Counted from the stretch's first letter, positions 10,971 through 62,924 are shown. The stretch is 64,000 nucleotides of DNA from an uncultured Pseudomonadota bacterium (GCA_964553945.1 CAZKLV010000002.1:271774-335773); one strand, 5' to 3'. The notes: generated by a model not told the origin, from the letters alone. Translations and numbers: made by a program.

Positions 10971-11924
10971 ATGAAACACCCATTCCTCATCATTATTTTA
11001 TTCAGCATCAGTTCATGCCTTCCTGGCATCTTGAAAGCCATGAATACCCAGGATCGGGAATTGTTTGAGAAATTCTTGGAAAATTATACATATAAGGATA
11101 GGATTCTGAGCAACCTCCAAACCGAAATCAACATTATTCAGGAGGATAAACTCACTCTTTTACAGAAAGCTGCGCTTGAGAAAAACGAAATAATCTGCTG
11201 CAAACTACTTGAAATGGGCGCTAACCCAAATGTTCGCTACCTTGATGATAAACCAGCGCTGCTGATTGCGATTGGGAAACATCTATCGAAAGCAAGTTGC
11301 CTTATGATCCAAAAAGGAGCTTACATCTATATAAGCGATAACAAATCAACAACTTTACAACTCGCCTGCAAAGAAAATCTAACCGATGTTTGCTTGATGC
11401 TCATAGCTAAAGGAGCAAGTGTCGAGTCAAAAGAATTTACTTATACACATCCATTGCAGACAGCAATCGATAAAGATAATTATAGGGTATGCCGAGCATT
11501 GTTAAGACGAAACGCACCGATGGGTAGCAAATTGGATAAACGCTTAGGAGCAACACCTTCAGCGTTGCGATATGCTGCACGGGACAAAAGGGGAAATGCA
11601 TGCCGCGCAATTCTTGCTCATACATTGTTTCAATCAAAAGAACCGATTTTTAAATTACTGCTTATCCTGCGCAGGATGCGCCAATCTCAATTAGATTGTC
11701 CATCATTACTGTATTCAAAGTTCAAAGAACTCATGGCTCGCCCCATGCTCTATATATTAGCAATTGAGAATAGAAATGATCTTATTCAAAAACTTGAGCA
11801 TAACAAGCACTTCAAAGATTTTCCCATCGATCTACTTGATATCATGCATATAGATCAAACTATTCAGGTATTAGTGAAAGAAGAGCTCGATAACATTCAA
11901 AACTCTGAATTAAAGAATGTATAG
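10971..11924 (+). CDS. leader-bearing ankyrin-repeat protein
   Basis: Leader MKHPFLIIILFSISSCLPGILKAM. ANK repeats include LTLLQKAALEKNEIICCKLLEMGANPN and TTLQLACKENLTDVCLMLIAKGASV. Confidence 0.8.
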   Translation: MKHPFLIIILFSISSCLPGILKAMNTQDRELFEKFLENYTYKDRILSNLQTEINIIQEDKLTLLQKAALEKNEIICCKLLEMGANPNVRYLDDKPALLIAIGKHLSKASCLMIQKGAYIYISDNKSTTLQLACKENLTDVCLMLIAKGASVESKEFTYTHPLQTAIDKDNYRVCRALLRRNAPMGSKLDKRLGATPSALRYAARDKRGNACRAILAHTLFQSKEPIFKLLLILRRMRQSQLDCPSLLYSKFKELMARPMLYILAIENRNDLIQKLEHNKHFKDFPIDLLDIMHIDQTIQVLVKEELDNIQNSELKNV

Positions 11925-12352
11925 AAAAATAAAATCAGAGAGAAGCATGGTATTAAAATTGGTAGATCGAGAAGTGCGCGCGCCCTGTTTCCCTTTTGAG
12001 GGTTCTTTTTTTATCTGTTCTTGAGTAGTAATGATGTTATATTCTTTTGACCATAATGGTTTTTAAACAATAATCAAAATAATGAGTAGATAGAGGTTCA
12101 AGAGAAGAATAAGAATATACGTGTATTGGTACGTATACGCGTGTATGTGTTTAAGTTACGTTCGATTGGTTCGTGTACTTATCATATGTACGCGTTATGA
12201 GCATTGACTACTTATACTAACAACTCCTATATGATCACCCTTCTTTATACTCTGCATACACATGAGTACTATTGGACCTCATTACTCCCTACTGTGCATA
12301 CTACAACAATAATTACGGTGACATAGTCTTGAGAAATGATAAATAATTAAAA

Positions 12353-12390
12353 AAACGCCTTTAAAGCCGGCGTTTCGCAAGAAACGCCGG
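12353..12390 (-). terminator. two overlapping GC-rich hairpins; the distal one is followed by a T-run on the minus strand
   Basis: ccggcgttt-cgcaag-aaacgccgg is a 9-bp stem (12367-12390). It is mutually exclusive with aaacgcc/ggcgttt (12353-12375), which is followed by TTTTT on the minus strand. Confidence 0.4.
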
Positions 12391-12654
12391 GGTGTTTAAG
12401 GGGTAGTTTTGTAATTCCTTTTCTCTTATTTTTTTTCTTGTCTTGTAATATGGCATGAGAGTGAGCAGCATCAAGGATTACTATCTCTAGTATTCGTATT
12501 ATATTGTTAGAATGAGTAATTCAGAAAATTGATAATAATAGACTCAATGGGGGATCGAAATGGGCTTTAGAATAAATGGTTTACTCGATTGCGATTTTAA
12601 TATTTTTAAATTGATTATTTCTTCAATCAATTCCGATTGTTTTCTTCTTAAAAA

Positions 12655-12775
12655 CACGAAGCCGCAGGCTTCACCCCCCATCTCGTGCCCCCATGCTCGA
12701 GTGGGGTGAGAGCCGGAGGCGGAGTGGTCTGCGCGCCCGCGCGGCAACGGGCAACCGGACGCAAGGATATAAAAA
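12655..12775 (-). other. GC-rich structured island in a gene-free AT-rich region (candidate small RNA or decayed GC-rich palindromic repeats)
   Basis: About 120 nt, much more GC-rich than its surroundings. Contains internal stems cccca/tgggg and gcccg/cgggc. It ends on the minus strand with gaagcc-tgc-ggcttc followed by GTGTTTTT. No match to tmRNA, RNase P, SRP or tRNA signatures that I could recognise. Confidence 0.3.
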
Positions 12776-60907: not shown

Positions 60908-61029
60908 AAACTTCAACCTATCCAAACCTGGAGATTGACAAGTTCCGAGCTTTGATTATATTAATATTACAGGCTGAAATTATGCATCAAGGCCAAAATG
61001 AGCCTATTTCAACCTTAAATGGAGACGCC

Positions 61030-62442
61030 ATGAAAAAAACAATCTTTTTCAAAGCTTTAGTGACAGGCCTTGTTCTGAGTATTACCTCTCGTTCATTCAC
61101 CATGGAAGAGGAGCCCGTTGACCCGCAACTTAAGATTGTCCGGGCTGATTACCAGCAAAAATGGAAAGCTATGCAGCCTCAAGAAGCAACACCCGCAACT
61201 GAATCGAGTGTCCCGCATACATCGGTGCAGCTTCAAGTTCAACAACCAGCTCAAAATCAATCAGAAAATATCGTCCACATGTTCTTGCATGATCCAGAGC
61301 AGTATGAAGCGACCTATGGTGCACTTCCTCATGAATTACAACTTGCGCTTGGTGAAAAAGTTCTTCAAGCAGTTCCCGAAATCGAGCAATGTGTTACTCG
61401 ATTTTTAACCGTAAATAACAATGTCACGCAACGTACATGGAAATATCGAACTCCACTCTCGCCAGTATATCCGCAGGATCCTCGCGTTGACCAAAGGTCA
61501 CAATATATCGGCAAGACTATTTCACTCGCTACATTTGATGCATCAGGCAAACGAATCGCATATGCAACAGCTTCTTGTGAGCCTGGAGATTACGCCAACA
61601 TCAGTGTTTATTCAACCGAAAACATGGAACTAATCTGGAATTCGGGTTACCCAATGAAAAATATTATCAATATTGCATTTGATGAAAATACCACCTCACT
61701 TTTGGTAACGAATGCATCCGAAAACGAATACCGTATAGACCTATCCAAGCCTATGAAGCTCAATTCAAGATATCCAGATCGGAAGTTAAGCCGAGCAGCT
61801 TTTGCTGCAATTATATCTCAAAAAGAAGAAAAGAGAGCATTGCTCGCATGTGTGAACGCCGATGGTGAGCAACCAGATAATCCACTCTATGGATTTAAAC
61901 GCCATGTGGATGGGCGTGAAATTCGTGATGCTCACTTTGATCCTTCTGGGCAACTTCTTTATATTCTTGCTATGGCGCCATTAGATCATCGACCCTGGGT
62001 TTCAAAAAATTTGCCACATAAAGAGCGCGAAGTAATAATCTATGATCTGCGAAACAATAAATTGATATATCATTACCGTACTATCGGTTACTCAGGAATT
62101 GCGGATTGTTTGTGCGTGCATCCTTTTACCGGGCAATTATTTTTCCACGAACAAGATAATTACGGATATGTGAAATATTTAGTAAATGTGCCATTTACTG
62201 GTGATCTGCAACAATTAGTTCGAAACATCACACTCGATCAAGCCATTACCTTGTGCGTATTGTTCCAAATGAAACGCCAAAATAAACTGGGCAACATTGA
62301 TCAAGTTCCCCACTTGAGGTCGTATTGCGAAAATTTGCCGACAGGGCTTTTGAAGTACTTCTTTACGCCAAAGCAAAATGGCTTTAAAGTGGTAGATGTG
62401 CCCGATTATACTCAAGTGAAATCTGAATGTGTAATATTGTAA
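61030..62442 (+). CDS. leader-bearing degenerate WD40/propeller-like protein with C-terminal CaaX box (CVIL); paralogue of 15350-16825
   Basis: GGAGA precedes the ATG at 61030. Blade-like repeats (ATFDASGKRIAYA, IAFDENTTSLLVT, AHFDPSGQLLYIL, VHPFTGQLFFH). N- and C-terminal blocks align with the WD40 gene. The protein ends KSECVIL followed by the stop. Confidence 0.6.
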   Translation: MKKTIFFKALVTGLVLSITSRSFTMEEEPVDPQLKIVRADYQQKWKAMQPQEATPATESSVPHTSVQLQVQQPAQNQSENIVHMFLHDPEQYEATYGALPHELQLALGEKVLQAVPEIEQCVTRFLTVNNNVTQRTWKYRTPLSPVYPQDPRVDQRSQYIGKTISLATFDASGKRIAYATASCEPGDYANISVYSTENMELIWNSGYPMKNIINIAFDENTTSLLVTNASENEYRIDLSKPMKLNSRYPDRKLSRAAFAAIISQKEEKRALLACVNADGEQPDNPLYGFKRHVDGREIRDAHFDPSGQLLYILAMAPLDHRPWVSKNLPHKEREVIIYDLRNNKLIYHYRTIGYSGIADCLCVHPFTGQLFFHEQDNYGYVKYLVNVPFTGDLQQLVRNITLDQAITLCVLFQMKRQNKLGNIDQVPHLRSYCENLPTGLLKYFFTPKQNGFKVVDVPDYTQVKSECVIL

Positions 62443-62477
62443 ATGTATCTCTTAATTTTTAACTAAATGAGTATCAT

Positions 62478-62924
62478 ATGATCTCAAATGTAAAACGACT
62501 AAAAAAAATTTCTTTCGGATTCCTATCTTTAACTTTATGGCTTTCAAGTTTTGCTATGCAAGAAGAACCTGGAGCACACAATCCGCAACATTTCAAACAA
62601 ACCGAGTTGGATAGATTACTGGGAACAACATGCCAAAAGCTCGTTGATGATGAGCTGCCAAGCTCAGAATGCTATTCAAAAGTCAAAGAGTTATTTCAGG
62701 CAGGTGCTAGCCCTTATGCAAGAAACATACGAGGGTTGCCAGTTATTCTAGCTTTGGTTGCAACAAAAGACGAACCTGAAATTTTAAAACTATTTTTGGA
62801 TGCCGGTGCTGATCCGAATACAACGACTTATTATGGCAAAACATTATATGCACTTGCCGCTGCGGATAATTTTGAAAACTCCTGTCGCCTGTTATTGGCA
62901 AGGGGAGCAGATCCGAAATTATGA
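62478..62924 (+). CDS. short leader-bearing ankyrin protein (lacks any C-terminal module; possibly a truncated copy)
   Basis: Leader ...FGFLSLTLWLSSFAM and two ANK repeats (GLPVILALVATKDEPEILKLFLDAGADPNTTTYYGKTLYALAAADNFENSCRLLLARGADP), then a stop. Confidence 0.6.
   Translation: MISNVKRLKKISFGFLSLTLWLSSFAMQEEPGAHNPQHFKQTELDRLLGTTCQKLVDDELPSSECYSKVKELFQAGASPYARNIRGLPVILALVATKDEPEILKLFLDAGADPNTTTYYGKTLYALAAADNFENSCRLLLARGADPKL

Follow-up and report, generated by a model that had tools for sequence, protein, structure and literature searches.

A methionine at the predicted signal peptidase I junction of ankyrin-type and other putatively exported proteins in a subclade of Dependentiae

Background

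Why should genes for ankyrin, WD40, glycosidase and orphan proteins, lying close together in one bacterial genome, all begin with a short basic and hydrophobic leader which ends in a small residue followed by methionine? The question is raised by a stretch of 64,000 nucleotides (GCA_964553945.1, CAZKLV010000002.1:271774-335773), referred to as a whole as the window. Twenty-five such N-termini had been listed there from the sequence alone, between positions 10,971 and 62,924, and their junction had been read as a lineage-specific targeting or processing signal borne by unrelated proteins (hereafter the original prediction). Here, I show that the Met junction pattern is real and far above chance. 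On balance, the leaders seem to be genuine Sec-type signal peptides, borne mostly by ankyrin-repeat or other effector-like proteins, and Met at +1, the first residue after the predicted cut, would be a heritable rule of one Dependentiae subclade, rare or absent in distant Dependentiae and in other phyla.

The Met junction and its enrichment

All 25 quoted N-termini are present and translate as described, about five of them (10971, 28904, 32045, 41734 and 53156) being weak cases. Four further junctions, at 27509 (minus strand, APVSG/MVQK), 58393 (minus, SMYG/MQRI), 40848 (plus, HSHS/MCTLE) and 63513 (plus, RTQS/MNKD), bring the total to 29; here and below a slash marks the junction or cut. Open reading frames (ORFs) were called mechanically and taken as signal-peptide-like when a 9-residue uncharged window had a mean Kyte-Doolittle value of at least 1.9 and the n-region was not net negative, a set which includes some membrane anchors. 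Met had been expected to be enriched at the boundary of the hydrophobic region, and so it is in comparison with other phyla: of the signal-peptide-like ORFs, 29/37 in the window versus 98/319 from outside Dependentiae have a Met 9-26 residues downstream of the point where the hydrophobic core begins (binomial p = 3e-9), and a strict junction (small -1, allowed -3, polar +2) is found in 20/37 versus 19/319 (Fisher p = 1.6e-12). When the site was predicted by a crude -3/-1 scorer, blind to the +1 residue, Met came out at +1 in 35/75 signal-peptide-like ORFs of the window and its close relatives, in 14/92 of other Dependentiae and in 6/206 of the outgroups (p = 9e-18). An ankyrin search of the large protein database brought up mainly other phyla and was used as a control: their ankyrin proteins which carry a signal peptide have the junction in only 5/77 cases.

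The notion that the carriers are unrelated holds in so far as several protein classes bear the junction, and is overstated in that 13 of the 29 are ankyrin paralogues, the independent families numbering nearer 12-15. Of the Josephin-like domain, also named among the carriers, Pfam gives no match, even with the threshold relaxed to E = 1. About seven signal-peptide proteins of the window (16933, 18277, 22373, 33795, 34994, 38067 and 49452) have no junction Met. The 29 leaders are listed here together with two contrasting proteins; P and L numbers are labels of homologous proteins and of loci in other genomes, respectively.

10971..11042 (+): ankyrin protein, MKHPFLIIILFSISSCLPGILKA/MNTQD; weak, with a possible lipobox ISS/C upstream of Met
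13553..13618 (-): orphan protein, ...LIAPYACA/MENSG
13855..13920 (+): ankyrin protein, MKKVSIKLLLTTLLFTASLGA/MQHPE; GGAGG upstream of the first ATG
15350..15409 (+): WD40 protein, MKRIILLAGLLLNLQALIA/MERPP
25809..25865 (-): orphan protein, paralogue of 26409-27509, ...ICWSQA/MVVPQ
27456..27509 (-): orphan family (26409-27509), MVYFLLFLSFIAAPVSG/MVQKV; Met kept in homologues P0122-P0125
28904..28972 (+): GH1, ...ALPTSTLG/MKYFA; weak, with Met in 5/6 orthologues and Pro at -1 in three
31962..32045 (-): orphan protein, ...ASVVPAIA/MNPAT; Met not conserved
32152..32208 (+): GH3, MKKHLFLLLLGTTLGLKT/MAPQE; Met invariant in a subclade of 47-52% identity
40848..40907 (+): HAD phosphatase, MTILRYILIGFILTTHSHS/MCTLE; signal peptide gained by 5' extension
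41734..41784 (+): DUF4258 protein with TTG start, LILSITLVSCMPFLSA/MEVKN; lipobox-like VS/C upstream of Met
42557..42616 (+): ankyrin protein, MKKLLLFSLALLNTMHLIA/MEEPG
43615..43701 (+): orphan protein, ...AASSSNALLA/MRHEV
44881..44934 (+): ankyrin protein, MKKLIIFLIICPQLILS/MEKDS; L164 orthologue ...QISYG/MNEF
46390..46449 (+): orphan protein with GTG start, ...MYTVPAHC/MRHTP
47063..47191 (+): orphan protein with a long leader of 42 residues, ...LLLGLPTALFS/MRTLS; start position uncertain
49146..49205 (-): ankyrin protein, MFKFIWFSIFSFASVFLHA/MEPVD
50998..51051 (+): ankyrin protein, MKKLILLITLTLHPLFA/MEAPK
52323..52409 (+): ankyrin protein, ...GVMMAQPINA/MKTTS
53156..53230 (+): ankyrin protein, ...FTTGCIGTDIKC/MDIRD; atypical charged c-region, in which TTG/C could be a lipobox
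54715..54780 (+): ankyrin protein, ...IVFMAQPSQA/MELHR
55488..55550 (+): orphan protein of 610 residues, MIKKLLLPLIIVMIALPIAA/MNPDQ
57597..57656 (+): ankyrin protein, MKKLALIMLIAGASTHLLA/MKENA
58331..58393 (-): small orphan protein, MKKLTLTLVLGIASCTSMYG/MQRIT; good lipobox IAS/C upstream, may be a lipoprotein
58553..58618 (+): ankyrin protein, ...LNLSTQECNA/MFKNV
59786..59851 (+): ankyrin protein, ...LCIFSNTDA/MNMRE
61030..61104 (+): orphan protein of 470 residues, ...LSITSRSFT/MEEEP
62478..62558 (+): ankyrin protein, ...LTLWLSSFA/MQEEP
63513..63587 (+): S-adenosylmethionine (SAM) methyltransferase, truncated where the window stops, ...ISIPSRTQS/MNKDA
34994..36730 (-), contrast: conserved exported protein of 578 residues without Met, canonical site ..AALNA/FGPKTFF
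16933..18249 (-), contrast: signal-peptide-bearing C11 peptidase that lacks the junction Met, ..MNAFA/LSWQR; L162 orthologue ..VCGA/WERR

Anatomy of the junction

Aligned on Met, the 29 leaders have A18 S4 G3 T2 C2 at -1 and L11 S5 I4 A3 T3 V1 M1 at -3; positions -4 to -6 are dominated by Pro, Thr, Ser, Gln and His, and -7 to -12 are rich in Leu and Ile. All 29 possess a basic n-region and an uninterrupted hydrophobic core, and the leader measures 16-28 residues, with the one exception of 42 residues (47063). The small uncharged residue at -1 and the small or aliphatic residue at -3 agree with a signal peptidase I site. Other signal classes fit less well: a twin-arginine (Tat) motif occurs in none of the 29 leaders, the junction residue is Met and not the Cys that a lipobox has at +1, and, as to type IV prepilins, the hydrophobic segment precedes the cut site and there is no conserved Glu at +5.

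By this anatomy the junction is a predicted signal peptidase I site with Met as its +1 residue. Both the logo of the aligned leaders and the Met-blind prediction sustain the earlier view of the leaders as export signals with a fitting cut between the small residue and Met. Classical Sec substrates of signal peptidase I share the basic n-region, the hydrophobic core, the polar c-region with a helix breaker, the small residues at -1 and -3 and the length of 16-28 residues; in them, however, the +1 residue is variable (Met in 3% of the outgroup sample), whereas in the present set Met occupies it in about half to three quarters of cases.

At +2 the commonest residues are E9 N5 Q3 K3 R3 V2. Provided that the cut is at the junction, 18/29 mature proteins begin with Met-Glu/Asp/Asn/Gln, as had been proposed, versus about 22% expected (p = 4e-6), and Pro occurs within +2 to +7 in 14/29 versus 21% expected. 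Across the junctions of the window and those of the relatives L081, L085, L166, L167 and P0123, residues -2 to -5 of Met-type junctions often include His (..AHA/M, ..THS/M, ..NHA/M, ..FLHA/M, ..THLLA/M), and Met is often followed by an acidic stretch with Pro (MEEPGP, MERPP, MEEEP, MQEEP, MDPS..); the junction motif may extend beyond A/M.

Two candidate sources of the resemblance were rejected at the nucleotide level. A shared leader cassette finds no leader-to-leader similarity between genes beyond one 14-nucleotide match. The purine at -3 and G at +4 of the junction ATG, correctly seen as automatic in the original prediction, merely follow from the Ala-Met-Glu codons, and a Kozak-like constraint is at odds with the free wobble position of Ala (GCC 5, GCA 7, GCT 4, GCG 2).

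Which ATG starts translation

Two in-frame ATGs around a targeting peptide make up the classic layout of dual targeting, and it had been suggested that the first ATG yields an exported isoform and the junction ATG a cytosolic one, identical to the mature protein. According to a further alternative, the whole pattern is an annotation artefact: the hydrophobic stretch would be untranslated open 5' sequence and the junction Met the sole start. Some public gene calls lend colour to both, for gene callers began P0126, P0132 and P0135 at the junction Met, with loss of the leader, and P0121 further downstream, at codon 34.

The ribosome-binding sites tell otherwise. Upstream of the first ATG the duplex with the anti-Shine-Dalgarno sequence amounts to -4.9 kcal/mol (-4.8 kcal/mol at the housekeeping starts of the window), with a GGAG-type motif in 20/29 genes; the junction ATG has -0.35 kcal/mol and the motif in 1/29, and thereby falls below even random internal ATGs (-1.5 kcal/mol, motif in 11%). 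From -30 to +33 the mRNA folds weakly around the first ATG (-5.1 kcal/mol, guanine-cytosine (GC) content 0.31), and at the junction ATG the folding energy is -10.3 versus -10.9 kcal/mol at ordinary internal ATGs (p = 0.41). The same is seen at 15 junctions in related contigs, where the anti-Shine-Dalgarno duplex is -5.4 kcal/mol for the first ATG versus -0.95 for the junction ATG. Since a Shine-Dalgarno site and an open mRNA structure are found at the first ATG only, the upstream ATG is the start and the leader is coding.

A second start at the junction is accordingly unlikely, and I would give it only a slim chance: two in-frame ATGs are present as in dual targeting, but the second lacks a ribosome-binding site and open mRNA, its Shine-Dalgarno complementarity being poorer than that of random internal ATGs in a genome which clearly uses such sites, and its surroundings as structured and GC-rich as those of ordinary internal ATGs. 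Nor would such a start need a small -1 or an allowed -3 residue. The artefact is strongly disfavoured and hardly credible, given the ribosome-binding sites and open mRNA at the first ATG and not at the second, the T at the second position of 53% of leader codons, the recurrence of basic n-region, unbroken hydrophobic core and -3/-1 motif in about 29 genes, and leaders whose reading frame and hydrophobicity persist in orthologues at 30-50% identity.

As to the gene calls themselves, P0001 (window 50968-52314) is over-extended upstream (MMEVIFCSNC-MKKL...), and public calls are inconsistent at window 50968-52314 and 26409-27509 as well as at L165 9947-11761 and 2579-3769. Automated annotation therefore under-reports signal peptides in this clade, and users should be warned that public calls sometimes drop the leader by starting at the junction Met or extend the gene too far upstream.

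Conservation and origin of the Met

Could the junction Met be a fossil start codon, that is, the old initiator of once-cytosolic (or eukaryote-derived) proteins, kept by inertia after a leader was gained at the 5' end? Many of the carrier families are normally cytosolic (ankyrin, WD40, HAD, SAM methyltransferase), and in an ankyrin protein of L011 a Met stands a few residues past the likely site (..NAYCAD/MQKD).

A case in point concerns the HAD phosphatase, whose signal peptide did arise by 5' extension (window 40848-41582, L168 10001-10654 and P0248). The relative in L168, 58% identical, is truly leaderless (MKFTSVIFDLDG) and starts MKFTSVIFD; upstream of it there is neither an in-frame start codon nor a hydrophobic leader, and a stop lies further up. 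P0248 has a signal peptide, ..CTLHA/QEKLS-MKYTTVIFD, and keeps the old initiator 6 residues past the cut site. The window protein reads ..THSHS/MCTLEKLS-TQHSTVIFD, with a 19-residue leader and a linker MCTLEKLS of which EKLS is common to P0248; the old Met (MKF/YT) aligns to TQHS and is lost, so that the junction Met is a different and newer residue. The leaderless gene of L168 adjoins riboflavin genes, and the window copy lies at the edge of an ankyrin array. Upstream of the leaderless gene, the intergenic DNA at L168 9810-9935 contains a near-perfect inverted repeat of about 30 nucleotides (CCCCGTTCGCCCCGAGTCGATTGAGGGG ... CCCCTCAATCGACTCGGGGCGAACGG).

In GH3 the junction is [A/S/T]/M in 9/9 leader-bearing members of the subclade of 47-52% identity. 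From the leader to the catalytic domain no residue other than Met is invariant, and the adjoining linker varies from 0 to about 50 residues; one of the members, P0135, is called from the junction Met, and its leader and Shine-Dalgarno site are found upstream in L165. About 110 more distant GH3 of Dependentiae (37-43% identity) have signal peptides, with Met at this place in only about 7. Because these distant proteins have the signal peptide and mostly lack the Met, the signal peptide of GH3 is ancestral and the Met derived. In the orphan family of 26409-27509 the aligned sequences are 22-33% identical to the window protein; 6/7 keep the Met, and the remaining one has a leader/Met junction of its own upstream. 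The ankyrin protein 44881 and its L164 orthologue both carry the junction Met at 32% identity.

The GH3, orphan-family and HAD cases weigh against a fossil start codon. Inertia does not readily account for a Met that is invariant in just that GH3 subclade when signal peptides occur in GH3 throughout Dependentiae, nor for its retention while leaders and mature N-termini diverged beyond recognition; no ribosome-binding remnant precedes it (1/29 versus 11% at random internal ATGs), and the exact placing of a cleavage motif at Met is left unexplained. Comparisons of HAD and GH3 with solved structures did not place the ancestral start precisely. All in all a fossil origin appears improbable, if less so than a second start, and the conservation suggests purifying selection on Met at +1.

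Host lineage and distribution

The window has a GC content of about 40% and contains rplT, infC, recA, a PpiD-like chaperone gene, miaA, dnaK, umuDC and ychF; these housekeeping genes are interspersed with, and followed by, many ankyrin-repeat genes, one WD40 gene, GH1, GH3, HAD, DUF4258 and methyltransferase genes and orphans. In one-genome-per-species collections the closest DnaK relatives are metagenome-assembled genomes (MAGs) of Candidatus Dependentiae (TM6)/Babeliaceae, at 73-79% identity and with the backbone synteny kept; synteny and identity of DnaK, YchF and RecA point to the same MAGs, and the GH3 homologues bear the names Candidatus Babeliales or Dependentiae. Judged from these genes, the window is assigned to a genome of Dependentiae (TM6), a host-dependent bacterium. 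Homologues of orphan 26409 and of GH3 led to closer, syntenic relatives, L162 and L164-L168 (DnaK about 90%, YchF 87-91% identity), and a metagenome scan with YchF found no close relative, the best match having at most 68% identity. The contig of P0003 did not resemble Dependentiae and was put aside.

The junction is frequent in the close relatives L162 and L164-L168. It occurs in further contigs of Dependentiae, namely L001 (TSYA/MENS), L002 (PIHA/MESS, QICC/MEKE), L007 (HALA/MKNP) and L081 (five ../MEK junctions), with more cases in L083 and L085, and is rare in L003, L004, L005 and L011. The claim of lineage specificity has thus proved sound, the junction being present in part of Dependentiae and rare elsewhere.

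Some exported proteins of the same genomes are exempt. The 578-residue family always has A/FGPKTFF, with orthologues in L165, L166 and L167 and a copy in L164 cut at the locus end. C11 peptidases never have the junction Met, +1 being L or W. In the window, the tandem clostripain-type (C11) peptidase genes 16933-18249 (-) and 18277-19347 (-) have an ordinary signal peptide in one and a lipobox (FFAASG/C) in the other, neither with Met. In a collagen triple-helix repeat protein, 22373-23464 (-), the signal peptide is canonical and likewise without junction Met (VASA/FEDDN); its collagen repeat is overlapped by long shadow ORFs on both strands.

These exemptions bear on another explanation, in which Met at P1' is preferred by an altered signal peptidase I or by an additional paralogue with which the substrates have co-evolved, with no downstream role for Met. 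That the trait is clade-wide and spans several protein classes, an outer-membrane-like protein of L168 among them, would suit such an enzyme, as would the hydrophobic residues at predicted non-Met +1 positions (45% in the subclade versus 33% in the outgroups). Yet the conserved exported proteins keep A/FGPK, A/L, A/W and A/K, and the hydrophobic excess is small and within the noise of a crude predictor; a general shift to hydrophobic +1 residues was likewise set aside as a weak signal. An altered peptidase is about as unlikely as the second start.

Several features of the surroundings deserve mention. Between 41700 and 63000 about 17 leader-bearing genes, most of them for ankyrin proteins, form a dense array on the same strand, several with 4-bp start/stop overlaps (52323-53159 / 53156-54718 / 54715-55491); the array is interrupted by a leaderless pentapeptide-repeat gene, 44150-44737 (-). 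Orphan 55488-57320, in the same array, found no relative in the genome collection. A umuD-umuC pair (S24 peptidase and Y-family polymerase), 23504-26348 (-), lies between dnaK and ychF and is also present in L011, L164 and L166. A small membrane protein of about 86 residues, 21927-22187 (-), MKSTLHK.VG..SWLITALASINVGLMPFGYDFF, is always near dnaK/ychF, at 69-73% identity (L162 10361-10621, L164 12933-13199, L165 2206-2475, L166 3613-3960), and this family produces false junction matches in some loci.

Comparison with known systems

Lipoprotein signals have an invariant Cys at +1 and a sorting rule at +2, and in the lipoprotein export signal of Bacteroidetes acidic residues after +1 sort the protein for the membrane step that follows. 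The likeness consists in an invariant +1 after a small -1, often with Leu at -3, and acidic sorting is a possible analogy for Met-Glu/Asp. Met, however, is not lipidated as Cys is, -2 is not small here, and lipobox-like Cys occur in only 3-4 leaders, upstream of Met.

A closer parallel may be the Q-rule of Bacteroidetes, by which signal peptidase I substrates have Gln at +1, cyclised to pyroglutamate (PMC5837995, PMC10653852). In both cases a lineage-specific, near-invariant +1 residue is found on ordinary Sec signal peptides, and in the Q-rule its conservation is due to the importance of the N-terminus that cleavage exposes. The differences are that the residue is Met and not Gln, that the host belongs to Dependentiae and not Bacteroidetes, that only part of the phylum has it, and that some conserved exported proteins are exempt. 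The Q-rule paper mentions neither Met nor TM6.

Within the phylum, signal peptides have been reported on 44% of the coding sequences and 78% of the ankyrin proteins of Chromulinavorax destructans (PMC6561590) and on 79/126 ankyrin proteins of Babela massiliensis, in which a type II system was the only secretion system found (PMC4378268); according to the two isolate genomes, export comprises Sec and a type II system only (PMC4378268, PMC6561590). Phylum and protein classes are the same as here, and what those papers report is the presence of signal peptides only. Term searches of PMC4378268, PMC6561590 and the TM6 comparative-genomics paper PMC4776705 found no word on a conserved residue at the cleavage site, nor did wider literature searches bring one up. 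Signal peptides on ankyrin proteins of Dependentiae are therefore already published, and no earlier description of the Met +1 rule was found in the literature searched.

Proposed explanation

Translation starts at the upstream ATG with its Shine-Dalgarno site. The protein would be routed through Sec by virtue of its basic n-region and hydrophobic core and be cut by signal peptidase I after the small -1 residue, directly before Met, and the exported proteins would begin Met-(Glu/Asp/Asn/Gln/Lys/Arg), often with a Pro-containing linker. From the sequences I infer that the cut falls exactly at A/M, and the Met-led, acidic, Pro-rich mature N-terminus would have been selected as a determinant of the later fate of the protein, which could be passage of the outer membrane, or stability or a host-like look in the host cytosol. 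Why Met was selected is a matter of speculation: by analogy with the lipoprotein +2 rule it may be a signal for crossing the outer membrane, it may have an effect on the host side, for instance through a eukaryote-like Met-Glu/Asp/Asn/Gln start or by sparing the protein from N-degrons, or it may reflect co-evolution with signal peptidase; none of the three is strongly favoured. More tentatively, and with doubts outweighing confidence, Met followed by Glu/Asp/Asn/Gln and a Pro linker might be a second-step tag, read by the machinery that carries hundreds of unrelated proteins over the outer membrane or by the host (NatB-type acetylation, escape from N-degrons).

A number of points weigh against a signal peptidase site with a selected Met. 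The cleavage position comes from a crude -3/-1 scorer and is a predicted site only. Lipobox-like Cys stand upstream of Met in 10971, 41734, 58393 and, loosely, 53156, and these may be lipoproteins. The basic orphan family of 32045 has M, I, K, R, K and Q at +1 (window, then four orthologues and one paralogue). In GH1 (28904) Met is kept in 5/6 orthologues with G, S, P, P and P at -1; because three have Pro there, Met is not always +1, and it probably belongs to a conserved N-terminal segment. The outer-membrane-like protein of L168 has ..SAHA/MVTPYF, and the Met rule is thus not confined to effectors. Which loci of Dependentiae count as bearing the trait and which as lacking it was decided post hoc, and a sample of about 20 kb per genome does not fix the clade boundary exactly. 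As to function, avoidance of N-degrons alone does not demand Met, Ala, Ser, Gly and Thr being equally good, and no enzyme or receptor reading an N-terminal Met was identified.

Conclusions

Dependentiae are a widespread and almost uncultured phylum of protist parasites, in which nearly half of the proteins carry signal peptides. A conserved, clade-specific residue at the cut site would offer a mutable handle on the recognition and delivery of hundreds of ankyrin-type proteins, and the Met junction may serve as an inexpensive marker by which to predict, from sequence, the proteins exported in MAGs. Were the second-step reading true, Met and the residues after it would form a short linear tag for export or host mimicry, of a status like that of the Bacteroidetes Q-rule or lipoprotein export signal. 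To sum up, if the Met rule holds, it would be the second lineage-specific first-residue rule for exported proteins, after the Q-rule of Bacteroidetes.

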